Made by a program: the position numbers and the translations under genes. A DNA stretch of 64,000 bases from contig CP084166.1 in NCBI GenBank assembly GCA_021513695.1, positions 320,001 to 384,000 on the forward strand. The letters run 5' to 3'. The stretch is from Candidatus Heimdallarchaeum aukensis (GTDB lineage Archaea; Asgardarchaeota; Heimdallarchaeia; Heimdallarchaeales; Heimdallarchaeaceae). Under the pieces are notes generated by a model. That model ran no database searches. It was not told the origin of the DNA and saw only the letters and a program-made list of their open reading frames with translations. Below are positions 7,098 to 64,000 of this stretch, one piece after another (position 1 is the stretch's first letter; every line of letters begins with the position of its first letter).

Positions 7098-7952
7098 ATG
7101 TCGATGAAAACAACAATAATCCCTGAAGATCAGAAGATAGAAATAAAAGAGGAAACTAAAAGAAAACCTACAATTGGAGTTTATGCTTTGACTTCTTGTT
7201 ATGGTTGTCAATTAAAAATAGCTACTGTTTCAAAGATTCTTGAGATTGCTGAAAGTGTAGACATAGAAAGCTTTTACATGTTATCTTCTGATAGCAGTAT
7301 ACATAAGAAAGTCGATATCGCTTTTGTTGAAGGTTCTGTTTCAACAAAGAAAGATTTAGAAGAATTACTCGAGATAAGAAAAAATAGTAAAACTCTAGTG
7401 GGTGTAGGAGCTTGTGCTTTACAGGGCGGTGTCCAAAGCTGGAGTAATGGTATTAAGAGCTATGATGAGCTTTTTGAAAATGTATATGGAAAAAACAAGA
7501 TTGAGATATCAGAAGCTATAGAAGCAAAACCGATAGAAGAATATGTTGAAGTTGATTTTAGATTACCTGGTTGTCCTCCTGAAGAAGAAGAAATAATTTA
7601 TTTCATCTCTACTTTCCTATTTGGTTCATGGCCAGAAGAAAAAGACTATCCTGTATGTCAAGAGTGCAGATTCGCAGGAAATATTTGTTTGCTTATTGAA
7701 AAGAATGAGCCTTGTTTAGGTTCAATAACAACTGCAGGATGCAATGCACGTTGTATCTCATATAATGTTCCTTGTATTGGATGTCGAGGACCTGTACCTA
7801 ACGATGTAGCATGGTTTGATTCTCTAGCAAAAGTCTTTGTAGAGAAAGGATTTACAGAAGAGTATATCAGAGAAAGAATGAAGATCTTCGGTTCTCACCA
7901 TCCTAAATTAGAAGAGTTGTTAGCTAAAGTTTTTGGAGGAGAAAAAAAATGA
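7098..7952 (+). CDS. hydD: [NiFe] hydrogenase small (delta) subunit
   Basis: Nuo20kDa/NiFe small-subunit-like N-terminal Cys ligands (ALTSCYGCQ), C-terminal Cys-rich region (CQECRF, CLGSITTAGCNARC, CIGCRGP); Shine-Dalgarno AGGAGG upstream. Confidence 0.8.
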   Translation: MSMKTTIIPEDQKIEIKEETKRKPTIGVYALTSCYGCQLKIATVSKILEIAESVDIESFYMLSSDSSIHKKVDIAFVEGSVSTKKDLEELLEIRKNSKTLVGVGACALQGGVQSWSNGIKSYDELFENVYGKNKIEISEAIEAKPIEEYVEVDFRLPGCPPEEEEIIYFISTFLFGSWPEEKDYPVCQECRFAGNICLLIEKNEPCLGSITTAGCNARCISYNVPCIGCRGPVPNDVAWFDSLAKVFVEKGFTEEYIRERMKIFGSHHPKLEELLAKVFGGEKK

Positions 7953-47891: not shown

Positions 47892-49877
47892 ATGAAAAGT
47901 GACAAAGATATAATGGGGTGTTTCTGGATGAATAATAAGAAACTATCAGTATTATATATTATAACATTTTTAGTTGTTTCCATGGCTTTTGGAAACAATT
48001 ACGGAATAAATGTTCAATCTGAAACCAGTTTGAATTCTTATCAAGCACTTCAAGCAGGAGATACCCTGTTATATGAAGTTTATAACTGGTTTGAAGATGA
48101 ATACAATCATTTACTCTATTTAGAACAAGAAACTCCAGATGTTTTCTCAGATAAATCATATGACAATTTCTTCTTTGAACAGATTGAGCTTCACTCATTT
48201 GTAGTTACTGGAGCTGCTGATCCTACATACCTTACAGCAAATGAAACAATGTCATCATATCCAAAGACTAATTATAATTATCATGAATATTGGCACTACG
48301 ATTATAGTCAAAACAAATGGGTAAGTGATTGGGTAGATGAATATAGTTTTGAAGATCCTCCAAAGAGTGATGTATTTTTCGATATCAGTTTTGATGTATA
48401 TCAGGATACCTTGAACCTAGATTTAGGTTTTTGGTTTTATGAAGCAGTATATGTTGAAAATTACAATCAAACCTACATAATCAATGGTGTTCCATTTGAA
48501 ATAAATATTACTCACTACAGTGTTTATCATGAATATACTTCTTCTTGGGAAGACGGATTTTATGATCTTCCTCTGTATGTAGAGCAAAATAATACCAATC
48601 AAATTGATTATTACATTGACACTGATACAGGATTTTTGATCGAATATGAAGAGTTTAACACTTTTGAAGAAAAAAGATGGGTAGATGATTATAGCAGTGA
48701 ACTACAAACCCATGTAATATTAAATGATACATTGTACAATGAAAATTACTTTAATTGGAAATTGGTAGGAGCAAATTGTCAATATGCACCATTAGCAGAA
48801 GTAGATTTGCCTTATATAGTGAACTATTATGATGTTTCGTTTTTAACCATAGAAAATGATACAGACTATGTTGTATTACCTTTAGAGCTTTATACATCCT
48901 CCAATAATTTAACAGCAGAAATATCTCTTGTTAATTGGGACATGGATGGACCTAATGTTACATTGTATGACAGAGTAGAAAATCTAACAAATGGATATTG
49001 GGAATATTGGATACCAGTTACAGAGTTTGAATATGTTGGTCCATACTATTACTATGATGTTTTAGTAACTCTATATGATGGATACAATGTTTCACATAAT
49101 TCAACATGGCATATAGGACTACAAGACAATAGAGTAATCATACCTGATTGGCCATCTTGGTATGAAGGACCAGACTACATTGAAGTAGGAGAATGGGAGT
49201 TCTGGGATCAACCCTACGATGTTTATTCTGATACTTATTGGTTTGTTGATATTTACAGATATACAGATGACCCAATGTATCCAATGGAATTCATTGATCA
49301 CTGGGAAGGATATCAGAATGGAACATTTTGGCTACATCATCGTGAAGAACCTGAAGGAGAATATCAATATGAAATTGTATTCTGGGACCAAAGCGGTGCT
49401 TATATCAATATGACTGTTACAGTTAAAGTAGTTAGTGGTTCGACTTCTCCAGAAGATACCGATCCTCCTGTTATTACTGGTGAAGGGCCAGACATTTACA
49501 TCAAAGAAGGAGAAGATAAAACTCTAACTTATAAGATTACAGATGAAAACCCTGACCATGTTATGGTTAAGAGGAACGGTACTGTTATTATAGATGAAGA
49601 CATGACAAGTTCTCCATACTACATTGATATAGACCTCTCAACTTTAGGTGAAGGAACTTACATATTTAGTATTGATGCTTGGGATATTTATGACAATCAT
49701 AATATCTGGGACATTACTGTCTATGTTTCTTCCAGTTCTTCTGACACAAATGATACTTCACCCACAGATGATACTGGAACAAATACTTTCGATTTAGATG
49801 CTCCTAATGGATTAATTGTTGGTATAAGTCTATTTTCTGTTAGTGCTTTAGTAGTTTTACTAAAGAAAAAACGCTAA
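47892..49877 (+). CDS. acidic, Trp/Tyr/Asp/Glu-rich surface protein with C-terminal TM anchor
   Basis: Signal peptide, pI clearly acidic, repeated YD/WxD segments, C-terminal TM + LKKKR. Confidence 0.45.
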   Translation: MKSDKDIMGCFWMNNKKLSVLYIITFLVVSMAFGNNYGINVQSETSLNSYQALQAGDTLLYEVYNWFEDEYNHLLYLEQETPDVFSDKSYDNFFFEQIELHSFVVTGAADPTYLTANETMSSYPKTNYNYHEYWHYDYSQNKWVSDWVDEYSFEDPPKSDVFFDISFDVYQDTLNLDLGFWFYEAVYVENYNQTYIINGVPFEINITHYSVYHEYTSSWEDGFYDLPLYVEQNNTNQIDYYIDTDTGFLIEYEEFNTFEEKRWVDDYSSELQTHVILNDTLYNENYFNWKLVGANCQYAPLAEVDLPYIVNYYDVSFLTIENDTDYVVLPLELYTSSNNLTAEISLVNWDMDGPNVTLYDRVENLTNGYWEYWIPVTEFEYVGPYYYYDVLVTLYDGYNVSHNSTWHIGLQDNRVIIPDWPSWYEGPDYIEVGEWEFWDQPYDVYSDTYWFVDIYRYTDDPMYPMEFIDHWEGYQNGTFWLHHREEPEGEYQYEIVFWDQSGAYINMTVTVKVVSGSTSPEDTDPPVITGEGPDIYIKEGEDKTLTYKITDENPDHVMVKRNGTVIIDEDMTSSPYYIDIDLSTLGEGTYIFSIDAWDIYDNHNIWDITVYVSSSSSDTNDTSPTDDTGTNTFDLDAPNGLIVGISLFSVSALVVLLKKKR

Positions 49878-49889
49878 TTTATTCCTTTT

Positions 49890-50954
49890 TTATTTTTTTA
49901 TTACCTTTTTTAATTGATCAAGAGTTAAAACTCCTTCACTAGTGATATAACCCTTTATTAGCTCTGCTGGAGTGATGTCAAAAGCATAATTTAATACTGG
50001 AGATTTTTCATTAGAAATAAGAATTCTTTTCTCCATTGATGTTACAAACTTTACTTCTTCTTCGTCTCTTTCTTCAATAACTATATCACTAGCTTTTCTT
50101 CCTGATAAGTCAATTGTGGACCACGGTAAAGCTACAAAGAAATCTATTCCAAAATATTTTGCTGAAATAGCTAAAGATAATGTACCTATTTTATTAGCAA
50201 TTGTCCCATCTTGTAAACATCTATCAGCTCCAACGATTATCTTATCAATTTCTCCTTTTGACATAAGAAAAGCTGCAGAATTATCAGTAATAATTGAATG
50301 TTCAATTCCTGCTTCATAAAGTTCCCAAGCAGTTATTCTAGCTCCTTGAAGTCTTGGACGAGTTTCATCTACAATCACTCTTACTTTTTTATTTTTGGAA
50401 TGAGCAACATAAATAGGTGCTAGAGCAGTGCCATAATCCACTGTGGCAGGAGCTCCTGCATTACAATGAGTTAAGATTGTATCTCCATTCTTAATTATTT
50501 TTTCTCCTTGTATTCCAATATTTTTACATTCATCTATTACTTTTTCTCTTAAAGAATGAGCTTTGTTCAAAACATTTTCTACTGATAAATTTGTATTTAT
50601 TGCTTCTTCTAGAATTATTCGTGCAAAATTTTCTAAATCTACTGCTGTAGGACGGGAAGAAATTAAAGTGCTGTAACTTGCTTTAAGAAATTCTATCTGT
50701 TTTTCTTGTCGCTTGAATTTACTTAATGCTTGAATTGCAGCAAATACCATACCATAAGCAGCAGTAACACCTATTGCTGGAGCTCCTCTGACTACCATGT
50801 TTTTAATAGCTTCGCTAACATCTTTCACACTATGGTATTCATTGAATTTTACATCCCAAGGTAATAACCTTTGATCTAGTAAGACCAATGAATTATTTTG
50901 ACTATTCCAAAAAACACTTGTCACATTTTTCAACTTTCTACTCTTTATCTGCAT
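49890..50954 (-). CDS. mtnA: eIF-2B alpha/beta/delta-family isomerase (MtnA-like methylthioribose-1-phosphate isomerase / aIF-2BI)
   Basis: LVLLDQRLLPWDVKF...AIKNMVVRGAPAIGVTAAYGMV and THCNAGAPATVDYGTALAPIYVA match MtnA/aIF-2B-like family; ORF track start 50993 lies in A-rich spacer, MQIKS start at 50954 more plausible. Confidence 0.7.
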   Translation of the reverse strand: MQIKSRKLKNVTSVFWNSQNNSLVLLDQRLLPWDVKFNEYHSVKDVSEAIKNMVVRGAPAIGVTAAYGMVFAAIQALSKFKRQEKQIEFLKASYSTLISSRPTAVDLENFARIILEEAINTNLSVENVLNKAHSLREKVIDECKNIGIQGEKIIKNGDTILTHCNAGAPATVDYGTALAPIYVAHSKNKKVRVIVDETRPRLQGARITAWELYEAGIEHSIITDNSAAFLMSKGEIDKIIVGADRCLQDGTIANKIGTLSLAISAKYFGIDFFVALPWSTIDLSGRKASDIVIEERDEEEVKFVTSMEKRILISNEKSPVLNYAFDITPAELIKGYITSEGVLTLDQLKKVIKK

Positions 50955-51005: not shown

Positions 51006-51869
51006 TTATTTTTCTCTTTCTTTAATATATTCTCTTAAAGCTTGAACTACGGGTAAAGAGTGAGTGTTTTTATTGTTTCCTAAATTTTTATAGGTTGAAT
51101 TCTTTATTAATTTGGCTATTTCTTTAGTTATTTTCGCATCATGCATTTTATCTGCTTCTGCAGCTATTAATAGAACTTCACTTTTTACATTAGCATAAGT
51201 ATCCCACCATTTAGGAAGAGCTAAAGGTTTGCCAAATTTTTTCCATTTTCTACCTTGAGCTTCATTTAAGACTCTGATATACTTTGCTGCTTGCTCTGGT
51301 GATTCAGATTTTGCTCTTTTAATCCAAATTTTAAGAAGAGGTTTTAAAACATTAAAACTCCAGAAAGGGACAATTGGCACAATATATCTCGTTAAAGGAG
51401 GTAAATCAAATCTTGCAGGAGGAGCAATCAAGACAGAAAATAATGGGTTATATTTGTTATTAGCTAATCCATGTGCAATTACAGTAGCACCAAAACAAGA
51501 GCCAAAAAGGATAGTTTTGTTTTGATCAAGTTCTTTAAGATTAATGATCTCTTTTAGATCATCACTCATTCTATCCATTCCTGTCTGAGACTTCTTTGGA
51601 ATGATACTAGACCCTTTTTCTCTGCTTTCTATGTATAAAACATTAAAGTCTTTACTGAGTTCCATTAAAACTTCATCCCAACCTAAGACTACAGAACCCC
51701 ATCCAGCAAAAAGAACTATATTGTAAGTTTTTTCTGTTTCATTGTCAACTTTAGTAGATAGAACTCTTAATTGGGCTCCGTCTGACATTGTTAGGTATTC
51801 TTCTGTTGCGAATTTCTCATATTCTGCTTGTTGTAGCTCCAGAAAATTTTTCACACTTTCAGCTGCCAT
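51006..51869 (-). CDS. alpha/beta-hydrolase-like protein with Cys in nucleophile elbow (paralog A)
   Basis: VLFAGWGS oxyanion-like strand, elbow ILFGSCFGATVIAHG, conserved KPLLKIWIK and DKMH; paralogous to 62349..63278 and 63445..64000; 12 nt upstream of mtnA-like gene. Confidence 0.5.
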   Translation of the reverse strand: MAAESVKNFLELQQAEYEKFATEEYLTMSDGAQLRVLSTKVDNETEKTYNIVLFAGWGSVVLGWDEVLMELSKDFNVLYIESREKGSSIIPKKSQTGMDRMSDDLKEIINLKELDQNKTILFGSCFGATVIAHGLANNKYNPLFSVLIAPPARFDLPPLTRYIVPIVPFWSFNVLKPLLKIWIKRAKSESPEQAAKYIRVLNEAQGRKWKKFGKPLALPKWWDTYANVKSEVLLIAAEADKMHDAKITKEIAKLIKNSTYKNLGNNKNTHSLPVVQALREYIKEREK

Positions 51870-51955: not shown

Positions 51956-52675
51956 TTAATTAGGAAGAAAAAGATTAGCAATCCAAATATAAATCAAAAC
52001 AAAAGAAATTGAAAACCAAATAATAATTCTAAACCAATTTTCTTTTCTAAATTCAACCTTTTTATAATGTGATCTTTTAGATAATCCAAAACCCTTGAAA
52101 TATAAAGCTTGAGCCAAAAATTCAGAACGATAAAGAACAGAGGCTATAAAAATAGCTAGAATTTTAGGTAACCATTTGAAAATTGTTCCCTTTGTTTCTC
52201 TTAATCTTATTGTTTCAAAAGTTTCTTCTGCGTCTTTAATTATTCGTGGAGAAAGAGTTAACACTAAAGAAGGAAGTAAAGCAATCTTAGAGGGAAAATG
52301 TAAATTTTCTAGTGCTCTTGTTAATTCTGAAGGATTAGTTTTGGAAAAAAAGAAAACAAAACTTAATCCCCCATTTAGAATTCTAGTTATTGTTAAAATA
52401 CTGAAATACAATCCTGAAAAAATATAGGTCATTCCTCCTAAAAGAATTAATAGAGGAAATATAGCAATAATAATATTAAAAGCGCCGATACTATTTCCAA
52501 AAATGATGTTTTCGAACACGATTATTGCCAACATTATTACTTGAACAGCAATATTTGAAGAGAAAACGAATGAAAACTGAATTATTAAAATAATTATGCT
52601 TAGTATAGGGTTGAATATAATACCTTCAGATTGAAAAATTATTCCGCTGTAAATTCTGTTTAATAAGTAAGACAT
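51956..52675 (-). CDS. ecfT: ECF transporter transmembrane (T) component EcfT/CbiQ
   Basis: ~240 aa, 5-6 TM, CbiQ-like, immediately downstream of fused ECF ATPase. Confidence 0.65.
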   Translation of the reverse strand: MSYLLNRIYSGIIFQSEGIIFNPILSIIILIIQFSFVFSSNIAVQVIMLAIIVFENIIFGNSIGAFNIIIAIFPLLILLGGMTYIFSGLYFSILTITRILNGGLSFVFFFSKTNPSELTRALENLHFPSKIALLPSLVLTLSPRIIKDAEETFETIRLRETKGTIFKWLPKILAIFIASVLYRSEFLAQALYFKGFGLSKRSHYKKVEFRKENWFRIIIWFSISFVLIYIWIANLFLPN

Positions 52676-54337
52676 CTAGTTTCCTCCTTGATCAAAAACC
52701 CCATTAAGAGCTAATTCTGAAATTTCTTCAACAGTAATGATATGGGGAAGTTCAGCTTTGAAACTTTCTTCTAATTCTAAAATAAACCTAACTAACTGAT
52801 TAGGAACGAGTTTTGTTTTTTTCTCTAATTCGTATAAAATTTTCTGTGGAGTTCCCTTTAGTGCGATTTTTCTCTCTTCAATTACAACTAATTTATCAAA
52901 AAAAGGTAGAATACGTTGATCGTTTGTAGCAATAATTACAATCTTTCCTTCTTTTTTAGCTCTTTCAATACAAGTGTATAATAGATTTCTCCCTTCTTCG
53001 TCTAATCCAATTGTAGGTTCATCCAGAAGGATGAATCGTTTGTCAGATAGAAAAGCTGTATATATTGCCAGTATTCTTCTTTCTCCTTCACTCATATGAT
53101 AAAGCTTTCTAGAGATTAAGTGCCAAAAACCGAATTTAGATAACTCTTCTTTAACAATATCCAAATCTACTTTTGTTTTCTTTATATCATCTAGAGGAGT
53201 AGGGCCCATTAAAAATAATTTAGCATTTTCAGGAACATAAGCTACATACTTACTTGTGTGTCTTAAACCCTTTATCTTGTTTCCAAATAGGAGTACTTTA
53301 CCTTTATTTGGTTTGAGAATACCAGAAATCAACCGAAGTAGAGTACTCTTCCCACTTCCATTTATTCCGAGCAACCCTATAATGTTTCCAGGATAGATTT
53401 CGAAATTTATATTTTCCAAAATAGGTCTCCTGTTATACCTAAACGAAACATCTTCAACGTTTAGAACGATTTCATGTTTATCTTTTTTTAATTCTTCTTT
53501 CTTCTCTTGAAATCTATTTTTTAGCTTTAGAATCTTCTCCACTAGTTCTTTTTTCCCTTCTTCTTTTTCTAAACTTTGTTCAACTTTAAGCTTTTCTGCA
53601 AGCAAATAAATTTCTGGTAAGTCAACTCCAGTTAGTTCAGATATTAATTCATGTGATTTTCCTGATTTAATAATTGTCCCATTCTCTATGAAATATATCT
53701 TATCTGCTAAAGAAAACAAATAATCTAATCTATGCTCAAAAACTATAACAAGATGGCCCTTTTCTGCTAGTTTCTTTAATGTTTCTGCAATTTTTATCTC
53801 TGAAGCGGGGTCTATTCTAGCCATTGGCTCATCCAATACTAGAATTTTGGGATAGCAAATTAAAGATAAACAGAGTTCAACTCTTTGAATTTCTCCAGAA
53901 CTAAGTTCAGTCATTATTCTATTTTTTAGATGATCAACTTCTGTGACTTTTACAGTTTCTGAAATTCTTTCGTGAATGATTTCACGCGGAAAAGATAGAT
54001 TTTCCAAAGGAAAAGCTATTTCTTCTTCTACAAGCATGTTAGTTATAAAATCTGAAGGATACTGTGGAATGTAGCCTACAGTTCTGATAAGTTCAAATCT
54101 TGTTAAATTTTCAGTTGGTACTCCATTAATTAGTATTTTTCCTTTAATTTCTGCAGGAATAAACTTAGGAATCAGACCCAAAATAGCTTGTGCAAGAGTG
54201 CTCTTTCCACTTCCACTTTTACCAGCGAAAACAACAAGCTGTCCCTTCTCTAAACTAAAACTAATATTTTTAAGATTCCACTTGCTACTTGTTTTATATT
54301 TAACTGAAAGATTTTCTAACTCTAGCACTCGCACCAA
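52676..54337 (-). CDS. ecfA: ECF transporter fused tandem ATPase (EcfA-EcfA')
   Basis: Two ABC modules: Walker A GKSGSGKST and GINGSGKST, signatures LSSGEIQRV and MSEGERRIL, Walker B ILVLDEP / ILLDEP. ORF track start 54457 overlaps S-component by 80 nt through a T-rich stretch; TTG/GTG start near 54337 (..VRVLELENLSVKY) more plausible. Confidence 0.75.
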   Translation of the reverse strand: MVRVLELENLSVKYKTSSKWNLKNISFSLEKGQLVVFAGKSGSGKSTLAQAILGLIPKFIPAEIKGKILINGVPTENLTRFELIRTVGYIPQYPSDFITNMLVEEEIAFPLENLSFPREIIHERISETVKVTEVDHLKNRIMTELSSGEIQRVELCLSLICYPKILVLDEPMARIDPASEIKIAETLKKLAEKGHLVIVFEHRLDYLFSLADKIYFIENGTIIKSGKSHELISELTGVDLPEIYLLAEKLKVEQSLEKEEGKKELVEKILKLKNRFQEKKEELKKDKHEIVLNVEDVSFRYNRRPILENINFEIYPGNIIGLLGINGSGKSTLLRLISGILKPNKGKVLLFGNKIKGLRHTSKYVAYVPENAKLFLMGPTPLDDIKKTKVDLDIVKEELSKFGFWHLISRKLYHMSEGERRILAIYTAFLSDKRFILLDEPTIGLDEEGRNLLYTCIERAKKEGKIVIIATNDQRILPFFDKLVVIEERKIALKGTPQKILYELEKKTKLVPNQLVRFILELEESFKAELPHIITVEEISELALNGVFDQGGN

Positions 54338-54377
54338 CCCAATAAATAAAGAAAGAAAAAAAAAGATTTGTATAGGG

Positions 54378-55145
54378 CTAGATTTCGTCTTCTTCATTTG
54401 AGAGGAAGCCAATTTTATGTAGGTAAGAAACAATTGGAATTGCAATTGCTGTTCCAAAAACTACTTGTCCAAAGTTAAATGGGATCTCTACTAAAGCAGC
54501 GCCTATACCAAAAAGTAACCACTCATAAAGGAAATAACCTACAACGATGATTAATCCACCAGAAACGCAAGAAATAATCATCTTTCCTTTCTCTCCCCAC
54601 AATAGGGTTGAAACCCAGATGAGGGTTATTAACAGTAAAGAAATAATTAATATTACATATCCAGGAAATGTAAAAGTTAATTCCAGTCCTCCAAGTCCAA
54701 GAAGAGAAAGACCTCCCTCGATATTATTGTTAAACAACAATGCGGATGCAGTTATCATAAGAGCTGAAATTATAGAAACAAATGTTATCTGAATCTTTTT
54801 TGAAAATTTGCGTAAGAGCATAAATAGTAACCCAACAGTAAAACCTTCAGCTGATTTTAAAACGAATGTTGCCGGAGCAAAGATAGCATATCCTAAAACT
54901 ATATCCGCAAGAGCAGCTCCTACTCCTCCAGCGATCATCCCTACTATGGGCCCACCTACTAATGCTGCTACGTAGATAAATGCTTCTCCTAAATTAAAAA
55001 AACCTTCAGAAGTTAATGCTAAATAGAAAATAGATGTTGCTAGAAATACTAATGTTGTAAAAGAAGCTGTTGTTGCTAACCCTCTTAAACTCGCTATTTC
55101 TGCAAAATCTTTTTTTATTGAATACCTCTCTATCATTTTTATCAC
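54378..55145 (-). CDS. ECF transporter substrate-specific (S) component
   Basis: 255 aa small multi-TM protein with Gly-rich helices (GGPIVGMIAGGVGAALADI) directly upstream of ecfAA'-ecfT; substrate unknown. Confidence 0.5.
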   Translation of the reverse strand: MIKMIERYSIKKDFAEIASLRGLATTASFTTLVFLATSIFYLALTSEGFFNLGEAFIYVAALVGGPIVGMIAGGVGAALADIVLGYAIFAPATFVLKSAEGFTVGLLFMLLRKFSKKIQITFVSIISALMITASALLFNNNIEGGLSLLGLGGLELTFTFPGYVILIISLLLITLIWVSTLLWGEKGKMIISCVSGGLIIVVGYFLYEWLLFGIGAALVEIPFNFGQVVFGTAIAIPIVSYLHKIGFLSNEEDEI

Positions 55146-55227
55146 TATTCAAGTTTCAACTTTAATATTCAAGATTCAACTTGTATACTCCTTTAAAAAA
55201 TTTGTGGTATATCGTTAATGAGAAAAA
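55146..55227. repeat. imperfect 16-nt direct repeat in ECF operon leader
   Basis: ATTCAAGTTTCAACTT (55147-55162) and ATTCAAGATTCAACTT (55167-55182), spaced 20 nt, between panB stop and ECF S-component start. Confidence 0.4.
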
Positions 55228-56031
55228 CTAATCATATCGTTGTTTTTCAGTAGGAAAAGAGCCACTTTTCACTTCTTCATGATATTTTTTTACAGCATTA
55301 GAAATTATTTCCTTGATGTCAACATATTGCTTAATAAACTTGGGTTTAACTTGAAAATTCAACCCTAAAATATCATCAATTACTAAAACTTGACCGTCAC
55401 AATATTCTCCTGCTCCAATTCCAATAGTAGGTATGGTTAAACTTTCAGTTATTTTCTTTGCAAGTTTCCATGGAATGGATTCCAAAACTATAGCAAAAAC
55501 TCCGGCTTCTTCTAGTAGTTGTGCATCTTCAAGAAGAATCTGTGCTTGTTTTTCTTCTCTTCCTTGAACTTTGAATCCACCAAAAATATTAACATACGTA
55601 GGAGTAAGTCCAATATGTCCTAACACAGGGATACCAATTCGAATAATTTTTTTAATATCTTCAATTCTTTCCCTTCCCCCTTCAAGTTTTACTGCTTCTG
55701 CATTTCCCTCTTTAACTAGTTTATGGGCATTTCTAGCTGTTTCAGAGGGATTAATACCATATGTTCCAAAAGGGAGATCTCCAATCAGTAAAGCTCTATT
55801 TACTGCTCTTGATACAGCTTGAGTGAGCATAATAGTATTTTCTAAAGTTACTTTCAAGGTGTTATTATGACCTAAAATTGTCATTCCTAGCGAATCTCCA
55901 ACAAGAATAGAATCAATTCCTGCATCATCAACAATTTTAGCTATTGGATATGTATAAGATGTAAGCATAGTTATCTTTTCTTTGTCTTCTTTCATTCTCT
56001 GAAAATCTTTTACTGTAACTTTATCTTGCAT
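55228..56031 (-). CDS. panB: 3-methyl-2-oxobutanoate hydroxymethyltransferase (ketopantoate hydroxymethyltransferase)
   Basis: KITMLTSYTYPIAKIVDDAGIDSILVGDSLGMTILGHNNTLKVTLENTIMLTQAVSRA collinear with PanB core; ~267 aa. Confidence 0.8.
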   Translation of the reverse strand: MQDKVTVKDFQRMKEDKEKITMLTSYTYPIAKIVDDAGIDSILVGDSLGMTILGHNNTLKVTLENTIMLTQAVSRAVNRALLIGDLPFGTYGINPSETARNAHKLVKEGNAEAVKLEGGRERIEDIKKIIRIGIPVLGHIGLTPTYVNIFGGFKVQGREEKQAQILLEDAQLLEEAGVFAIVLESIPWKLAKKITESLTIPTIGIGAGEYCDGQVLVIDDILGLNFQVKPKFIKQYVDIKEIISNAVKKYHEEVKSGSFPTEKQRYD

Positions 56032-56100
56032 TATTATCAGTCTACGATTTGAATTCTACTATAAATTTTTTCGCTGTATCGAGAAATTTATAGAAAAAAA

Positions 56101-56817
56101 CTATTGTCTCTCTTTACTAAGAAGTAGATAGTTTATTATCATTAGAAACAAAGCAAAAGCTTGATATCCAAGGATATAAGGTAAAATAATAAAATCCTCT
56201 GCAATGATTATTCCAGTAGTAAAAAGAGCCATTGCTAAAATCAAAAATAGAAAAAACCACAGAATGATATTTCTATTTTCTTTCTTTAAACCCATTGCTA
56301 TCCAAAGCATGAGAAAAGAAAGAATAAAGGGTTGGTAAAAACCATTAATTGGCGAAATGGCTAAACTAGGAGCAAAGATAGCAACTAAATAAAAAAGAGA
56401 ACTAAAGAAGAATAAAAGAATAAGAGAGAGTTTTCTTACAATTCTAGGATAGGTATTTAGTTTTTTTTTCCAATTGACTTTTCTTGAAAATTTGTGAATT
56501 ATCTTGTTACTATCCTTAAAAAAACTGTATTTTTCTATGTTATTCATTTTTAAATTATTAATTATAGACAAAATTAAAGGAAGAATAAAAAGAGTGTAAG
56601 GTACATAAATAAGATAAGGGAACCAGTAAATCGCTGGGTCTTTTATTTCTTGGTCAACAGTATCCAAGTGAGATAACACATAACCAGATTGAACAATTGT
56701 ACCAATGGTTATTAATATTAAACTCACAAACATAAAGTAAAGCAAGCTTATCCATATTTTATAACGTTGTTCAGTGAAGAGAACTTTTATTCCAGACCTT
56801 TTTCTTTCCAGATTCAT
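56101..56817 (-). CDS. hypothetical polytopic membrane protein
   Basis: ~7 TM helices, no family recognised; located between PPS and panB. Confidence 0.35.
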   Translation of the reverse strand: MNLERKRSGIKVLFTEQRYKIWISLLYFMFVSLILITIGTIVQSGYVLSHLDTVDQEIKDPAIYWFPYLIYVPYTLFILPLILSIINNLKMNNIEKYSFFKDSNKIIHKFSRKVNWKKKLNTYPRIVRKLSLILLFFFSSLFYLVAIFAPSLAISPINGFYQPFILSFLMLWIAMGLKKENRNIILWFFLFLILAMALFTTGIIIAEDFIILPYILGYQAFALFLMIINYLLLSKERQ

Positions 56818-56861
56818 TATTTTACTTTACTTTTTTAAATATATATAGTTTCTTAATTTTT

Positions 56862-57647
56862 TTACTTTGAATCTTTGAATTTTTTTAATTTCTCAGCATC
56901 GAAACTCTTTAATCTTTCACTTATAAAAGTAAGCGATGTGTGTAATGAATCAAAATTTTCAAAATTGCTGATTATTTCTTGAAGATTTAGAGAATCTTCT
57001 TTTTTCATCTCTTGAGCCATTTTTATCATTTCAGGAATTGCTCTAATCACATTATTTACAATAGTTATATTTGACCATAAAGAAGTGCGAGAAAGAGGAT
57101 TTAGATCAATACTTATTACAGTTTTACTTAACTTTCTTAGAGCCATGGTTCTATCTCCATCTTCCAATGGTACCATTACAACATCAGCAGAAAAGATACC
57201 TCTTTTATCTACAATTCTTCTTAAATGTGAAAGTTCTTTTATTTCTGTTTGATAATTAGGATCTAAACCGTATATTTTTTCTGCACCGTTTTCTCTTAAT
57301 ACTTTTTCTAACGCTTTCATCCTTTTTTCGCTGCGATAGAATAAATTAACCTCTAACTTTGAATTTGTTTCTTCTGCTAGTTTTATTATTTCTCTTGGAC
57401 ATAAAGCTGCGACATTTCCATTAACGCTAATAACAGGATTTTTCGCTAAAAGAAGGCTTGCGACTGCAGCTTTTTCCTGTTCTAAAGCAAAAGAAGGAGT
57501 TTTTTCTCCTATTAAGTAATCAAATGCTTCTCCTCTACCATGTGCAATTAATCCAGCTTCTGCGACAATGTTAGAGTGCATTCCATCAATAATTAATTCT
57601 CTGACTCTAAGTGATTCTGCTCTCGGATGATCTTCAGGAATCTTCAT
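56862..57647 (-). CDS. 4-phosphopantoate--beta-alanine ligase (archaeal phosphopantothenate synthetase, PPS)
   Basis: Near full-length collinearity with archaeal PPS (COG1701): AGLIAHGRGEAFDYLIGE, NPVISVNGNVAAL, VVMVPLEDGDRT, ISIDLNPLSRT. Confidence 0.85.
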   Translation of the reverse strand: MKIPEDHPRAESLRVRELIIDGMHSNIVAEAGLIAHGRGEAFDYLIGEKTPSFALEQEKAAVASLLLAKNPVISVNGNVAALCPREIIKLAEETNSKLEVNLFYRSEKRMKALEKVLRENGAEKIYGLDPNYQTEIKELSHLRRIVDKRGIFSADVVMVPLEDGDRTMALRKLSKTVISIDLNPLSRTSLWSNITIVNNVIRAIPEMIKMAQEMKKEDSLNLQEIISNFENFDSLHTSLTFISERLKSFDAEKLKKFKDSK

Positions 57648-57738: not shown

Positions 57739-59916
57739 TTAATTTTTTCTTCTTCTGAATAAGAAAGTTGTCATAAATACAGTACTCAAAACAATGAATG
57801 CTCCAAAACCAGGAGTATTAGTAGGTTGAGTGTCAGTTGGTTCTGTTGGTTCTGTTGGTTCTGTAGGCTCTGTAGGCTCTATGGGTTGAGGATTAGGTTC
57901 AAAGTATGTTTTGAATTCTGGATCGTGGTTTATTTCTTTTCCATCCCAAACAGGATAGTTGATTATAATCAAATCTTTTCTGTATAACCAGTTTAGAGTA
58001 GTTTCTTGCTTTTCTGAATCTGTCATTACTTGACCTATATCATCGCTTTCACTTTCAAATTCTCCTACTTCTGTTGAATTAGAAAATGTTTTCTGTCCTG
58101 TTAAATAAACCAAATTTAGCACTGTAGTATTTGTATTATGTGTTGAACCTTCTATCGAATATTCTAGTTTCGAACCACCTAAACTAATGTCAATAAGCGC
58201 TGTGTCATCACTGTATTCTATTGATACCTCTGTTGTGGTTGTTGGAACAGAAGAACCTATTCCTTCTTCATCAGTTTTAGCCGTTACATCTTCTACTGTT
58301 AGCATTTCACTTACTTGATAAGTCGCAAGTGACAGACCCTCCATGCTATTCTTAAGTGTGGAATCTGTTATTCCTCCAAAGACACTTGTTGTAGCTAAAC
58401 TTGCTTCTCCAGTATCTAAGTTAACTGTATAAGAATAATCATAACTTATATCCATTGGATCTGTTGTTACTGTAGTATCTGAAGTGTTATACCATAAAAC
58501 TGGATAATCATTATAATCAATACCCCAACTAAAAGTAACACTACCATCATCGTTTTCTACAGGATCAGTCCATCTAGGAGTATAGTTAATTTCAGCGTCT
58601 ATATCTCCTACTTCTTCCACCACATACTTTTCTCCAACTTCAGTATTGTTAATGTTGATATTGTTATATATTCCTGCACCAGGAGCATAAACAATACTAG
58701 TGTAATTGTTGGTAATGTTATAAGTTACAAAGTATTCATTCTTGTGAGCTTCTGGAAAACCGATATACTTAACCCAATCAATAGGATCATGCTTTACATT
58801 TCCACTATCGTCCAAATATACATCAAGTTGATTGTTGTAATTTCCATCATAGTAAGCTATCATTCTAGAAGGATTAAGTGTTCCCCATACAGCAAAATGG
58901 TCAATAGTTGCATTAGTTGATCTGCTAACAAAAGCTTGTACAACAGCTTGAGCTGTAGATCTACTTTGTAATCGCCCATAAGCTGTAAATTCAAAGCTTT
59001 GGTGACCTTGATCTGCAATTAGTTTAGGTAACATATTTCTTGGATAATAATTATAAGGTACATTTCCTCCATAGTCGTTAAATTCTGGGTCATCTGAAGT
59101 TATTGTAACATTGTGGAGATAAAATCTAAAGAACCCTATTTCCATCTTAAAGACTTCTGCATATTCAATACTAGATTTAATACAACCAAAGTAATTTAGA
59201 GCGATATTACTTCCATCCGTTATAATTACATTATAACCAGTCATTGTTGCATTATATTCAAAACCATAGGCCATATATCCACCTATTATATTTCTTGCAT
59301 AAAAAGTAGAGTTCACTGTTACTTGGAAAGTCTGTGTTGTTATCTGAATAAACATTGCTACAGGTATAATAGCTACTAAATGATAAAACTTGAATAGACC
59401 ATATTCGTCAACACTGTCGATAAATTCTATAAGAGTGCTGTTTACAAAGGATTGGCCAAGATACTCTTTTTCAGTTGATAGAAAAAGTACTTCATTTGGT
59501 AGATCTGAAGTTACATTTAGACTAACATTATAATGCGCACTTCTAGCCCAAATGCGTGGCATAAGATCGTTGTTAACGTAATCTACCATAGTTTCATTAT
59601 TTACTAAAACCTTAAACTCTGATTCACTTCCATTTCCCCAAACACGGAAGTCAACTATTAAATAAATAGCATCTACTAACTCATAACCAGTCACTAAATC
59701 TAAAGGACCAGTATACATCGTAGTTTCTTTATATTCTTCATCTACAAGCATATAATCAAAATAACTATAAGAGCCTGATTCACTGAAAGTTTTTACTTCG
59801 TGAGAATAGTAGATACCATTAATTTCATTAGTTTCTCCCACTGAAGGGGGAGTTAGCGAAACAACCGAGAAAATAACCAAAGATATAACTAAAAAAGTTA
59901 ATTTCTGTTTGTTCAT
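57739..59916 (-). CDS. secreted surface protein with Thr/Pro/Glu linker and PGF-CTERM-like C-terminal sorting signal
   Basis: Signal peptide; C-terminus PTEPTEPTEPTEPTDTQPTNTPGFGAFIVLSTVFMTTFLFRRRKN = Thr-rich linker, PGF tripeptide, TM helix, Arg-rich tail. Confidence 0.5.
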   Translation of the reverse strand: MNKQKLTFLVISLVIFSVVSLTPPSVGETNEINGIYYSHEVKTFSESGSYSYFDYMLVDEEYKETTMYTGPLDLVTGYELVDAIYLIVDFRVWGNGSESEFKVLVNNETMVDYVNNDLMPRIWARSAHYNVSLNVTSDLPNEVLFLSTEKEYLGQSFVNSTLIEFIDSVDEYGLFKFYHLVAIIPVAMFIQITTQTFQVTVNSTFYARNIIGGYMAYGFEYNATMTGYNVIITDGSNIALNYFGCIKSSIEYAEVFKMEIGFFRFYLHNVTITSDDPEFNDYGGNVPYNYYPRNMLPKLIADQGHQSFEFTAYGRLQSRSTAQAVVQAFVSRSTNATIDHFAVWGTLNPSRMIAYYDGNYNNQLDVYLDDSGNVKHDPIDWVKYIGFPEAHKNEYFVTYNITNNYTSIVYAPGAGIYNNININNTEVGEKYVVEEVGDIDAEINYTPRWTDPVENDDGSVTFSWGIDYNDYPVLWYNTSDTTVTTDPMDISYDYSYTVNLDTGEASLATTSVFGGITDSTLKNSMEGLSLATYQVSEMLTVEDVTAKTDEEGIGSSVPTTTTEVSIEYSDDTALIDISLGGSKLEYSIEGSTHNTNTTVLNLVYLTGQKTFSNSTEVGEFESESDDIGQVMTDSEKQETTLNWLYRKDLIIINYPVWDGKEINHDPEFKTYFEPNPQPIEPTEPTEPTEPTEPTDTQPTNTPGFGAFIVLSTVFMTTFLFRRRKN

Positions 59917-61707: not shown

Positions 61708-62277
61708 TTATCTTCTTCTTTTTCTTTTACTCTTTTTACTCTTTTTAATAGTTCTAAAAGCAATAATTAAAGACAGAATAGTAAAGATCAATCCAACAAT
61801 GGCATAAATAGGAAAGTTAGTGTCATAGTCACTTCCATATCGATCAATAAAGGTAAGATAAGAGACAAAACCCATAATGGTTGTACCTAAAATAAGTATG
61901 TCTGCAATGAATGCACCAATAGCTCCATGAATGAATAATAAAAGTAAAGCAGCTAGCAATAAATAAGGAATGATCAAAGTAAGTAATCCTTCTGTAGATA
62001 AATTGTTGTCGATATCTAAGAAACTTATTTCAACATCACTCACATAAAGAATGGCAAATAACTTTGTTCTATCAGTTAAAGCATCTCCTGCATATTCCCA
62101 TCTTCCATCTTCACTAAACCAGTTAAAGTTGTAAAAAGCTATTTCAAATTCATTATCATGAACAGATACTGCTCCTAGAGGAGTCATCATATATGTTGTA
62201 TCAAAACTATCAACATGATGAATACCAATAGGCATAATAAAAAGTATCAAAATAAAAACTACATTAAGAGCTTTCAT
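61708..62277 (-). CDS. small secreted protein with C-terminal TM anchor and poly-basic tail
   Basis: Signal peptide, ~100-aa ectodomain, TM helix, KKSKKSKRKRRR tail. Confidence 0.35.
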   Translation of the reverse strand: MKALNVVFILILFIMPIGIHHVDSFDTTYMMTPLGAVSVHDNEFEIAFYNFNWFSEDGRWEYAGDALTDRTKLFAILYVSDVEISFLDIDNNLSTEGLLTLIIPYLLLAALLLLFIHGAIGAFIADILILGTTIMGFVSYLTFIDRYGSDYDTNFPIYAIVGLIFTILSLIIAFRTIKKSKKSKRKRRR

Positions 62278-62348: not shown

Positions 62349-63278
62349 TTAGTGAGAAATAGATTGTTCTACCTCAATCATTCCTGCAAGCTCTTCGACA
62401 TTTTCGATTATTTTCTTTGCAAATTCTTTTGAACCTGGATTGTGATGCATAAAGTAATAATTGGGAACTTCTACATAGGTACCGTTTTTCATATTTTCAG
62501 CTATTTTAACTGCATCTCCTCCTTTATGCATCCTATCCTTCATTGTACCATATAGCCATGAGCGTACATCAACCCTAATGTAATCATCGTAACAATTGTG
62601 ATTTATTATTGGGAAGCTCTTTTTCCAGTTTGAACCTTTTCCATTATCAAAGAGTTCAAAATAGGTTTTTCTCTGAATACCTTTAGGGATAGTCATCTTT
62701 ATCCATAATTTAAGTAAGGGTTTTGCTATGAAATTGTAAGTAAAGTCTGCTGGAAAATAAGCAAGAGGGATAAGTTGTCTAGGTATTGGAAAGCGTATTG
62801 TTGGGCTCATAAAAATAGACCCTCTAGGTTTAACAAATCCTTCTGCAATAGCGTGGGCATTAACTGCTGCACCAAAACAAGGACCTAACAAAACAGTTTT
62901 TTCAAGATCTAAACCATAATAGTCTATAGCTTCTTTTACATCAAGAGCATGTCTATCCATCGTTCCAGTGTGTTTCTTGTTCATTTTAGAAAAACGTTTT
63001 TCTCTAGTTTCTAGAACATATAAATCAAAATATTTGTACAATTCATCCCACGTGTCATTCCAACTGTAAGGAGCTGTTGACCAACCTGGAACAAAAAACA
63101 AACTAAACTTGGATGGATGCTTACCTTTTTTTGTATAATAAGAATAAAGTTCTGCTCCATCACTCATTGTGATAAATTCTTTTTTAGCTTCATTGTAGAA
63201 GAGTGCTTTTTGTGTATAATTTTTTGAAAAACTACTGTATATGTTCTCCTCCTCTTCTTCATCAATGGTATCATTCAT
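62349..63278 (-). CDS. alpha/beta-hydrolase-like protein with Cys in nucleophile elbow (paralog B)
   Basis: FFVPGWST, VLLGPCFGAAVNAHA, KPLLKLWIK, DRMH, FMHHNPG; paralog of 51006..51869. Confidence 0.5.
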   Translation of the reverse strand: MNDTIDEEEEENIYSSFSKNYTQKALFYNEAKKEFITMSDGAELYSYYTKKGKHPSKFSLFFVPGWSTAPYSWNDTWDELYKYFDLYVLETREKRFSKMNKKHTGTMDRHALDVKEAIDYYGLDLEKTVLLGPCFGAAVNAHAIAEGFVKPRGSIFMSPTIRFPIPRQLIPLAYFPADFTYNFIAKPLLKLWIKMTIPKGIQRKTYFELFDNGKGSNWKKSFPIINHNCYDDYIRVDVRSWLYGTMKDRMHKGGDAVKIAENMKNGTYVEVPNYYFMHHNPGSKEFAKKIIENVEELAGMIEVEQSISH

Positions 63279-63444: not shown

Positions 63445-64000
63445 TTAATTAGCTGTAGAAATTATTTTTTCAATGAAATCTTTAATAATTTGAGCATATT
63501 CTTTAGCTCCAGGATTATAATGAGCAAAATAGTATGAAGGAGTATCAACATATTCACCTTTAGGAATCATTTCAGCAACTTGTTTAGCTATAACTGCTTC
63601 ATGCATTCTGTCTTCAGTAGCTCCTGTAATCAAAGCAGGACAGTCAACATGAGGATAGTCAACAAAGGAGTCGTGCCAAGCAACAGCTAAAAACTTTTTC
63701 CAACGCATTCCAGTAGCGTTTCTAATATTGTTGATGTAAATATCTCTCTGCTTTCCTTTAGGCATGGACAAACTCAACCAAATAACAAGTAAAGGTTTAC
63801 CGATAATACCCATAAAAAATGCAGGGAGAACATAAGCTAAAGGAAGCAAAGCTTTGGGAAGGAAAAATTTCTTAGGGGGACCATTTAGAATAACACCTAA
63901 AGGTTCTATCTTTTTAGTTGCTACAGCATGTGAAATAATAGAAGCTCCAATACATGGCCCCATAAGAAAAGTCTTTTTTTCATCAAGATTGAAATAATCC
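63445..64000 (-). CDS. alpha/beta-hydrolase-like Cys-elbow protein (paralog C), N-terminus beyond window end
   Basis: Reading frame open to window edge (..DYFNLDEKKTFLMGPCIGASIISHA); KPLLVIWLS, DRMH, FAHYNPG conserved with paralogs A/B. Confidence 0.45.
   Translation of the reverse strand, partial: DYFNLDEKKTFLMGPCIGASIISHAVATKKIEPLGVILNGPPKKFFLPKALLPLAYVLPAFFMGIIGKPLLVIWLSLSMPKGKQRDIYINNIRNATGMRWKKFLAVAWHDSFVDYPHVDCPALITGATEDRMHEAVIAKQVAEMIPKGEYVDTPSYYFAHYNPGAKEYAQIIKDFIEKIISTAN

Follow-up and report, generated by a model that had tools for sequence, protein, structure and literature searches.

Dienelactone hydrolase (PF01738) is the textbook example of an alpha/beta hydrolase with a Cys-His-Asp triad. 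Few Cys-His-Asp alpha/beta hydrolases are known; those listed in a recent classification are dienelactone hydrolase, PHA synthase and one group of PHA depolymerases (PMC11878206). To this short list would now be added an Asgard-expanded subfamily with both Ser-type and Cys-type paralogs. Their presence in the same genomes offers a natural experiment on a nucleophile swap in an otherwise unchanged scaffold. The basic picture stays as it was: the proteins are hydrolases of ordinary fold, which already carry the annotation 'alpha/beta fold hydrolase'. Literature searches on the family, on Heimdall esterases and on an mtnA-linked hydrolase returned nothing relevant.

The window, that is, the whole stretch of DNA analysed here, comprises 64,000 nucleotides from Candidatus Heimdallarchaeum aukensis. 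The first-pass annotation had described three paralogous alpha/beta-hydrolase-like proteins in it, here called p1, p2 and p3. These genes and two of their neighbours are:

49890..50954, minus strand: mtnA (S-methyl-5-thioribose-1-phosphate isomerase), 51 nt downstream of p1
51006..51869, minus strand: p1, 287 aa, Cys-type alpha/beta hydrolase of the mtnA-adjacent orthogroup
61708..62277, minus strand: predicted membrane protein of 189 aa, directly downstream of p2
62349..63278, minus strand: p2, 309 aa, Cys-type paralog
63445..>64000, minus strand: p3, Cys-type paralog arranged in tandem with p2, of which the C-terminal 184 aa are visible (N-terminus outside the window)

The three open reading frames are where the annotation had placed them, and all pairs align by pairwise BLASTP: p1 and p2 with 34% identity over 265 aa (E=9e-45), p2 and p3 with 41% over 179 aa (E=2e-52), and p1 and p3 with 35% (E=4e-28). 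Such similarity is far above chance level; tblastn found no fourth copy within the window. Against the orthologs of Ca. Heimdallarchaeum endolithica, dN/dS is as low as 0.066 for p1, 0.081 for p2 and 0.067 for p3, which indicates real genes under functional constraint and purifying selection. The counterpart of p2 in that species (P0121) is 93% identical, and the ortholog of p3, 90% identical, is a full-length protein of 286 aa (L007, 8970..9830) that reads EKREM where ESREK is expected. Signal peptides had been reported as absent, and indeed neither a TM segment nor a hydrophobic N-terminus was found (maximum Kyte-Doolittle 19-residue means of 1.49 and 1.15). Since no N-terminal hydrophobic segment is seen, the three proteins are probably soluble and cytoplasmic.

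That the proteins have the alpha/beta-hydrolase fold is borne out by the Pfam score of p1, by AlphaFold models and by structural similarity to solved members. p1 passes the gathering threshold of Abhydrolase_1 (31.2 bits vs 25.8), p2 stays below that of Abhydrolase_6 (18.1 bits vs 26.3), and the partial p3 has no Pfam match; the superfamily membership of p2 and p3 follows from their BLASTP homology to p1 and, for p2, also from its AlphaFold model (AF2 pLDDT 82.8). A central, mostly parallel beta-sheet with flanking helices is present, together with similarity to solved alpha/beta hydrolases. Among the Foldseek matches, PhaZ of B. thuringiensis, a PHB depolymerase (8ynw, E=1.6e-15), ranks first; solved relatives share only 13-20% identity, and scores are similar across dozens of esterases. 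No family member with a solved structure was found in the PDB (best profile match 47 bits). The NCBIfam equivalog models were uninformative, with every match far under its cutoff: none of the PcaD, MenH, BchO, RutD or EstV family models came near, the PcaD model TIGR02427 (cutoff 255.85 bits) giving 36.1 bits for p1 and 14.1 for p2.

Two labels carried by homologs were set aside. The DUF7948 label (PF25778) of some was treated as spurious, being a borderline match of 27 bits over 42 residues. Several others are labelled 'pimeloyl-ACP methyl ester carboxylesterase' (BioH-type) by JGI, a generic automatic annotation; BioH falls with them into one broad COG-level group, that of the small capped alpha/beta hydrolases. 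No BioH model occurs among the NCBIfam matches, and the neighbourhoods inspected showed no biotin genes.

Nearest among known enzymes are capped Abhydrolase_1/6 esterases, lactonases and haloperoxidases, represented by 3om8 (a PA hydrolase), 4uhc, 1va4 (the P. fluorescens aryl esterase), the 3-oxoadipate enol-lactonase PcaD (2xua) and 8ynw. They share only 13-20% identity with p1-p3 and have Ser in place of the Cys, whereas the family has an E-[ST]-R-E-K motif with an invariant Glu-Lys and, in D-x-x-H, an extra invariant His at the third residue behind the acid. p1, p2 and p3 belong to an uncharacterised Abhydrolase_1/6-type subfamily, defined in the present analysis, whose hallmarks are E-[ST]-R-E-K following strand 4 and D-x-x-H following strand 7. 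Its motifs lie at the following positions:

51693..51707, minus strand: A-G-W-G-S of p1, residues 55-59, in the loop after strand 3 (50-54 in the model)
51615..51629, minus strand: E-S-R-E-K of p1, residues 81-85, the signature after strand 4
51489..51503, minus strand: G-S-C-F-G elbow of p1, G123-G127, with the Cys125 codon TGT at 51495..51497
51141..51152, minus strand: D-K-M-H of p1, residues 240-243, after strand 7 (232-236 in the model)
51057..51068, minus strand: N-T-H-S of p1, residues 268-271, in the loop from strand 8 (258-262) to the C-terminal helix (272-286)
62871..62885, minus strand: GPCFG of p2, residues 132-136; p2 also has ETREK at 90-94, DRMH at 248-251 and His278, as read in its sequence
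63946..63960, minus strand: GPCIG of p3, as read in its sequence, like the next two
63601..63612, minus strand: DRMH of p3
63517..63528, minus strand: FAHY of p3

All motifs quoted in the first-pass annotation were recovered (AGWGS/PGWST, GSCFG/GPCFG/GPCIG, KPLL, D-[KR]-M-H and the late His). AGWGS resembles the canonical H-G-x oxyanion-hole motif, aligning with the HG region of Abhydrolase_1 and of PDB esterases; in 152 rows (150 representatives plus p1 and p2, both with Gly at position 56), G56 is kept in 149 and W57 in 94. ESREK, a charged version of the canonical D-x-R-G-x-G loop, aligns with DARGHG of 3om8. Its conservation is high both among 123 sequences (E81 in 120; R83, E84 and K85 in 121 each) and among the 152 rows (143, 148, 144 and 148, respectively), and together with D240, H243 and D104 these four residues are almost invariant in both alignments. 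The Cys does sit at the nucleophile elbow, as had been claimed: in the AlphaFold models strand 119-124 of p1 leads through Cys125 into helix 126-136, Cys134 of p2 lies where strand 128-133 meets helix 134-145, and in the PDB phmmer alignment GSCFG of p1 matches GLSLG of 3om8 with Cys on the Ser position.

The Asp of D-x-M-H and the late His likewise occupy the canonical acid and base positions by model topology and alignment. Asp240 of p1 aligns with the acid loop GQFDAIS of the Thermogutta esterase 4uhc, and the order of nucleophile, acid (D240 after strand 7) and His270 (after strand 8) is canonical in the model, in agreement with the general alpha/beta-hydrolase rule (PMC11878206). Judging from topology and alignment, Asp240 would be the triad acid and His270 the base. 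D240 and H243 are each present in 118 of 119 ungapped close homologs, and in 144 and 146 of 147 representatives, respectively; His270 is kept in 117 of the 119 close homologs and in 112 of 144 representatives, with Arg in 19; a clade that lacks it includes P0226, MBN1330343.1. Given that His270 is less conserved among representatives than the family-specific His243, the latter may have a catalytic role outside the canonical picture.

We consider it probable that p1-p3 are soluble, capped alpha/beta hydrolases which use a Cys-His-Asp triad for covalent catalysis and whose Cys derives from Ser. The nucleophile would be the Cys at the elbow between strand 5 and the following helix (C125 in p1, C134 in p2), with the predicted triad completed by H270/H278, the His behind strand 8, and D240/D248, the Asp behind strand 7. 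The predicted oxyanion hole would consist of the backbone NH groups of W57, after strand 3, and F126, after the nucleophile, and the pocket would lie under a helical cap some 70 residues long (roughly 150-226). Catalysis would proceed through a covalent thioester acyl-enzyme, resolved by water or possibly by an acceptor, on a putative substrate that could be a small ester, thioester, lactone or amide.

The wider family qualifies the picture of a Cys-nucleophile family: Cys is what p1-p3 have, but most relatives carry Ser. At the elbow column, 123 close homologs have Ser in 77 and Cys in 46 cases, and 151 representatives of 50%-identity clusters have Ser in 133 and Cys in 18; no other residue occurs there in either alignment, and the Ser/Cys alternation is restricted to this catalytic position. 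As read from these alignments, Cys is a clade-specific replacement of Ser and not a family-wide state, fixed in the mtnA-adjacent orthogroup of p1, in the group of p2 and p3 and in a few further clades. Residue differences between Cys and Ser forms elsewhere (e.g., P151, R153, F154) follow phylogeny and are not separable from kinship. Cys is best explained as the derived and Ser as the ancestral state, because all 24 bacterial and other relatives have Ser with a TCN codon and form the outgroup in NJ trees; basal Heimdall members also have Ser (TCN codons). The proposed lineage expansion is real, but a family of three copies falls far short of it. The family counts 173 clusters at E<1e-30, with members about 30% identical in Syntrophaceae, Leptospira/Spirochaetota, Calditrichota and others, and at least several paralogs per Heimdallarchaeota MAG, taxonomic range and paralog numbers being lower bounds drawn from the best 80 of 197 genome loci. 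For instance, MAG GCA_030603365.1 encodes a Cys-type protein (P0029) beside a Ser-type one (P0105), and HM4_B41 carries the Cys-type L043 alongside the Ser-type L027 and L051.

Other readings of the Cys have to be weighed against this proposal. The annotation had called the proteins dienelactone-hydrolase-like, and that they are members or relatives of this family, acting on dienelactones by its Cys-His-Asp mechanism, is scarcely credible. Dienelactone hydrolase is among the few known Cys-type alpha/beta hydrolases (PMC11878206), it shares with p1-p3 the Cys at the elbow and what would be the character of a soluble, cytoplasmic small-molecule hydrolase, and p1 has a weak Pfam match to it over residues 89-132. 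At the family level the identity is contradicted: the match stays under the Pfam cutoff (PF01738, 12 bits vs 21, E=0.16), dienelactone hydrolase is absent among the listed structural neighbours, and p1-p3 differ from it in their large helical cap, their flanking motifs and their mostly Ser-type relatives. No strong match to a well-characterised Ser-hydrolase family with a non-catalytic Cys was found either. A non-catalytic or sensor protein, comparable to RsbQ, KAI2/D14 or pseudoenzymes, in which the Cys would serve redox sensing or ligand trapping, is very improbable, as nucleophile, Asp and His are kept in p1-p3 and in nearly all close relatives, purifying selection on p1-p3 is strong, and similarity to RsbQ/KAI2 is no better than to ordinary esterases.

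Somewhat less remote, yet still improbable, is an acyltransferase or synthase in which a Cys thioester is passed to a non-water acceptor, as in PHA synthase or Cys-type thioesterase domains. PHA synthase and Cys-type PHA depolymerase are among the Cys-Asp-His enzymes of this fold (PMC11878206); PhaC and the intracellular depolymerase of this type share with p1-p3 this triad and a thioester acyl-enzyme chemistry, both of which would be expected of p1-p3. The top structural match is PhaZ, and a weak NCBIfam match points to intracellular scl-PHA depolymerase (20.7 bits). These similarities are generic, however, with 13-20% identity, esterase-like scores and values far under the NCBIfam cutoffs, and no specific sequence relationship to PhaC or PHA depolymerase was detected by Pfam, NCBIfam or PDB profile search. 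p1-p3 are also much smaller than PhaC, no PHA genes were seen in the neighbourhoods inspected, and Ser-type paralogs would be unusual for a synthase family.

Both TCN and AGT codons are used by the Heimdall Ser forms, and the AGT-Ser clade groups with the TGY (Cys) forms. A change from TCN through TGY to AGY takes one nucleotide change at each step, and a route through a Cys intermediate has been proposed for the 'two serines' problem. It is possible, if somewhat doubtful, that the family switched its codon set in this way, from Ser (TCN) through Cys (TGY) to Ser (AGY), with the Cys enzymes as the surviving middle state; all three codon states would then be extant as functional paralogs in Heimdallarchaeota genomes, and the mtnA-linked Cys orthogroup that includes p1 would be the nearest relative of the AGT-Ser clade. 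In bootstrapped NJ trees the mtnA-linked Cys group and AGT13 are together monophyletic in only 22 of 200 replicates, and a purely Cys group is sister to the AGT clade in 164 of 271; placements of this clade within the Cys clades and as their sister are not separated, so that the codon path is no more than suggestive. If true, the pattern, which touches a classic question of molecular evolution, would show the Cys-intermediate route in living genomes, with an active site that tolerates, or exploits, either nucleophile.

The neighbourhood of p1 offers a concrete functional lead for methylthioadenosine/5'-deoxyadenosine salvage, which is poorly understood in Heimdallarchaeia. The neighbour is MtnA by its equivalog score (TIGR00512, 368.6 bits vs a cutoff of 279; Pfam IF-2B, 252.6 bits). 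All 27 family members located directly upstream of mtnA have Cys, lie on the same strand and are spaced 25-55 nt from it, whereas mtnA was found beside no Ser-type paralog; the 27 loci come from many Heimdallarchaeota MAGs, and the orthologs have retained Cys at 45-91% identity. One may therefore ask whether p1 acts with MtnA in an extra salvage step, e.g., hydrolysis of a thioester, lactone or ester near the methylthioribose branch, the change from Ser to Cys being an adaptation to the substrate. This would be compatible with the hydrolase mechanism preferred above, adding a physiological role to it, and any such link would be drawn from adjacency. It gains from the fact that the p1-mtnA pair was kept when the upstream LOR-MTD block switched sides in the Heimdallarchaeum lineage. 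We nevertheless regard it as unlikely: these loci share a syntenic, heterogeneous block made up of MTD, a 249-aa gene, LOR, the hydrolase, mtnA and the gene of a 660-aa secreted protein, so that the adjacency may be inherited synteny, and in Ca. Harpocratesius (L053) the Cys-type gene and an IF-2B gene lie about 3.5 kb apart on opposite strands. Moreover, possible terminator and promoter signals, a T8 run and a TATA-like box, lie in the 51-nt spacer between p1 and mtnA, which may therefore be transcribed from promoters of their own. No methionine-salvage route with an alpha/beta hydrolase turned up in a literature search; to our knowledge, no described route uses one. LOR and the 249-aa gene received no NCBIfam assignment.

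Elsewhere the neighbourhoods point in different ways, and any substrate class would be a guess. Against mtnA beside p1 stand genes for MFS, MarR and a small membrane protein around p2/p3, and DegV and NTP_transf_3 near Ser paralogs; prfC and queF in Syntrophaceae and an isopropylmalate/tartrate dehydrogenase at Leptospira-like loci are uninformative. The 189-aa membrane protein downstream of p2 has no Pfam or NCBIfam match, and it is 31% identical (E=2e-18) to a protein of another Heimdall MAG (L009, 7353..7907) whose gene adjoins a p2-type gene (P0124).

The three open reading frames that the first-pass annotation had described as alpha/beta-hydrolase-like proteins with Cys at the nucleophile elbow (the turn between strand 5 and the next helix) are all present:

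51006..51869, minus strand: p1, 287 aa; Cys125 codon TGT at 51495..51497, extra His of the D-x-x-H motif (His243) at 51141..51143, late His (His270) at 51060..51062
62349..63278, minus strand: p2, 309 aa; Cys134 codon TGT at 62877..62879
63445..>64000, minus strand: p3, 184 aa visible, the rest beyond the window end; Cys codon TGT at 63952..63954

Every motif named in that annotation was found in the sequences, and by pairwise comparison the proteins are clear paralogs (p1-p2 34% identity, E=9e-45; p2-p3 41%, E=2e-52; p1-p3 35%, E=4e-28), which bears out the three-member paralogy; no fourth copy was detected within the window, which is AT-rich (G+C ~30%). The proteins are 91% (p1), 93% (p2) and 90% (p3) identical to those of a close relative, Candidatus Heimdallarchaeum endolithica (closed genome CP084167.1), and since dN/dS against these orthologs is 0.066, 0.081 and 0.067, respectively, all three are functional, strongly constrained genes.

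An AlphaFold2 model of p1, built with 51 homologs as input, reached pLDDT 90.5 and pTM 0.90, and a structure model of p2 reached pLDDT 82.8. Both models place the Cys precisely at the strand-turn-helix junction (strand 119-124, Cys125, helix 126-136 in p1; strand 128-133, Cys134, helix 134-145 in p2), and a phmmer alignment with PDB 3om8 sets p1 GSCFG on GLSLG, in agreement with the proposed replacement of Ser by Cys. Asp240 of the D-K-M-H motif, after strand 232-236, and His270, between strand 258-262 and the C-terminal helix, are predicted by the p1 model to occupy the canonical acid and base positions (rule summarised in PMC11878206), as had been suggested; residues ~150-226 form a helical cap in the model. 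The likeness to dienelactone hydrolases did not survive: that Pfam model gave p1 12 bits, below its cutoff of 21, whereas Abhydrolase_1 scored 31.2, above its threshold of 25.8, and we do not count p1-p3 as dienelactone hydrolases. NCBIfam matches (PcaD, MenH, BchO, RutD and similar) were all weak and far sub-threshold. The PcaD, BioH and PHA-synthase families were rejected as well. The three proteins belong to, and work like, alpha/beta hydrolases of the Abhydrolase_1/6 type; nothing in their fold or likely chemistry is unconventional, and the three-paralog Cys-elbow finding is real.

Word-indexed searches returned 120 homologs of p1, all those with a source name being from Heimdallarchaeota/Heimdallarchaeaceae MAGs, and only 8 of p2. 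Searching 1.84 billion cluster representatives with a profile recovered 173 clusters below E=1e-30 and 365 below 1e-10, and a genome scan located 197 family loci in GTDB species genomes. Among the best 80 of these 197, almost all of the top ~60 bear a Heimdallarchaeota label, frequently with several loci in one MAG, while a few have another Asgard label (Thorarchaeota, Promethearchaeati, Ca. Harpocratesius) or just that of an uncultured archaeon; lower-ranked loci, ~30% identical, come from Syntrophaceae/Smithella, Spirochaetota/Leptospira, Calditrichota, Dehalococcoidia, Deferribacteres and a Thalassarchaeum. The lineage expansion suggested earlier stands for Heimdallarchaeota MAGs, and the family extends well beyond three copies. 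In an alignment of 150 representatives with p1 and p2 (152 rows), the signature E-[ST]-R-E-K after strand 4, which aligns with the canonical D-x-R-G-x-G loop as its charged variant, is kept in 143-148 rows; it is accompanied by D104 in the next helix, by D-x-x-H following strand 7 (D in 144/147, H in 146/147) and by the late His (112/144). The family profile found no PDB member (top match the generic esterase 4uhc, 47 bits), a literature search on the family found nothing, and public annotations read 'alpha/beta fold hydrolase', 'hypothetical protein' or a generic 'pimeloyl-ACP methyl ester carboxylesterase'; we therefore consider this an uncharacterised subfamily.

At the elbow, both alignments contain Ser or Cys and no third residue, while the flanking small positions vary between G, A, S and T, as expected for a catalytic nucleophile; this conservation is shown, like the fold and the position of the Cys. 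Cys is not the family state, as Ser is in the majority among p1-p3 and 120 homologs (77 Ser, 46 Cys) and among the 150 representatives with p1 and p2 (133 Ser, 18 Cys). Rather, Cys follows clade membership. Having called ORFs in 92 fetched loci and clustered the neighbouring genes, we found Cys in 27/27 loci in which a member lies directly upstream, on the same strand and at 25-55 nt, of an IF-2B-family gene, which encodes MtnA, S-methyl-5-thioribose-1-phosphate isomerase (TIGR00512, 368.6 bits, cutoff 279). Ser occupies the elbow in 13 members adjoining a divergent NTP_transf_3 gene, in 8 adjoining DegV and in every bacterial member. The p2 group has GPC[FI]G in 6 sequences and C-A-S-S-S with Ser in 2 divergent members. 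The window holds one mtnA-linked gene (p1) and a tandem GPC[FI]G pair (p2, p3), all Cys-type. Both types also occur as paralogs within one MAG (e.g., GCA_030603365.1, HM4_B41).

A Cys codon (TGY) is a single-step intermediate between the TCN and AGY serine codons, and Brenner reportedly proposed such a route between the serine codon sets in 1988. The nucleophile codons read in the 92 loci are TCN in 24/24 bacterial and other relatives, and TCN (25), AGT (17) or TGT/TGC (36) in Heimdall members. Bootstrap NJ trees recovered a 13-member AGT-Ser clade as monophyletic in 271/300 cases; in these 271 the sister group was Cys (TGY) only in 164, TCN-Ser only in 68 and a mixture in 39. In a BLOSUM62 NJ tree the clade falls within the mtnA-linked Cys group, beside p1, and every AGT member has p1 or the p1 ortholog of H. 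endolithica as its nearest non-AGT relative (48-52% identity). The clade shares a mean identity of 0.44 with the Cys group, as against 0.41 with TCN paralogs. Cys and AGT sequences formed a strict joint clade in just 22/200 replicates, and grouping of the AGT clade with Cys clades has only moderate support. PMC6872785 describes TCN and AGY as disjoint sets, two substitutions apart. A path by single steps from Ser(TCN) through Cys(TGY) to Ser(AGY) is possible at this catalytic residue. The finding is slightly richer than the first reading, since Ser-type and Cys-type paralogs share a genome, Cys is strictly linked to mtnA and the codons show this pattern. To the few Cys-type alpha/beta hydrolases that PMC11878206 names, these proteins add one more lineage, though Cys is here a clade-specific swap in a mainly Ser family.

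We propose covalent catalysis via a Cys-His-Asp triad (C125/H270/D240 in p1), in which W57 (in G-W after strand 3) and F126 would contribute their backbone amides to the oxyanion hole and the substrate, a small soluble ester, thioester, lactone or amide, would react under the helical cap via a thioester acyl-enzyme; this chemistry is taken by analogy from established superfamily knowledge. His243 is more conserved across the wider family than His270, and the Heimdall G-[ST]-C-W-G clade and some Ser members align Arg at His270 while keeping D-x-x-H (e.g., MBN1330343.1, Heimdallarchaeota).

A functional tie between p1 and MtnA was weighed from gene context. In most other Heimdall MAGs the gene order is MTD, a 249-aa gene, LOR, hydrolase(Cys), mtnA and a 660-aa secreted protein; the Heimdallarchaeum lineage has the MTD-LOR block on the opposite side and still keeps hydrolase and mtnA adjacent, which, with the invariant Cys upstream of mtnA, favours a tie. 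Against it, the whole heterogeneous block is syntenic, not just the pair; in Ca. Harpocratesius the Cys-type hydrolase and IF-2B genes lie ~3.5 kb apart on opposite strands; and the 51-nt p1-mtnA spacer carries a T8 run and, ~25 nt ahead of the mtnA ATG, a TATA-like TTTTTATT, which leaves co-transcription uncertain, as the two genes may be transcribed separately. For these reasons the adjacency is suggestive but not decisive, and we regard the tie as unlikely. Less probable still are an acyltransferase role, a sensor or pseudoenzyme role, and a place in the dienelactone hydrolase family, leaving the Cys-His-Asp hydrolase as our preferred reading.

On its other side p1 adjoins an ECF transporter module, and further genes lie around the paralogs:

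47892..49877, plus strand: large N/Y/D/E-rich secreted protein, no domain match
49890..50954, minus strand: mtnA
51956..52675, minus strand: EcfT
52676..54457, minus strand: fused EcfA-A'
54378..55145, minus strand: ECF S component
55228..56031, minus strand: panB
between panB and the ligase, minus strand: 238-aa membrane protein
56862..57647, minus strand: archaeal phosphopantothenate synthetase (4-phosphopantoate--beta-alanine ligase)
57739..59916, minus strand: large N/Y/D/E-rich secreted protein, no domain match
61708..62277, minus strand: 189-aa multi-pass membrane protein next to p2, without family assignment

The minus-strand genes at 51956..57647 form a coenzyme-A-related cluster, with panB and the ligase upstream of the ECF module. 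The S component gave no confident substrate match; its place beside these genes suggests that the transporter (51956..55145) takes up pantothenate or a precursor. The 57739..59916 protein ends in (TEP)n...NTPGFGAFIVLSTVFMTTFLFRRRKN and scores 19 bits, sub-threshold (24), against the NCBIfam 'Heimdall-CTERM' sorting-signal domain. The 189-aa protein is conserved beside p2-type hydrolases, being 31% identical (E=2e-18) to a counterpart at 7353..7907 of fetched locus L009; its equivalent in Ca. H. endolithica (L007, 17350..17919) is separated from the p2 ortholog by the insertion of a 1610-aa ORF and an rve-type transposase. In two genomes, genes of the p2/p3 type have an MFS (ATG22-like) transporter and a MarR/DUF7343 regulator nearby.

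Ser-type paralogs repeatedly adjoin DegV (a fatty-acid-binding family), present in 12 of the fetched loci, with 8 Ser-type members classed as adjacent, or a divergently transcribed NTP_transf_3 gene, present in 17, with 13 members classed as adjacent (Heimdall loci L005, L011, L024, L027 and L045-L057 for either gene); a phytoene-desaturase-like amine oxidase at times lies immediately 3'. These neighbours hint at lipid or isoprenoid-related substrates for the DegV- and NTP_transf_3-adjacent paralogs. Two Heimdallarchaeota MAG loci (L088, 4097..6767; L092, 4045..6715) each cluster three divergent members, two in tandem and one divergent, with degenerate elbows (T-S-S-M-[LIV], T-T-S-A-G), Leu at the His270 position in one copy and an AGT Ser codon in the tandem pair.
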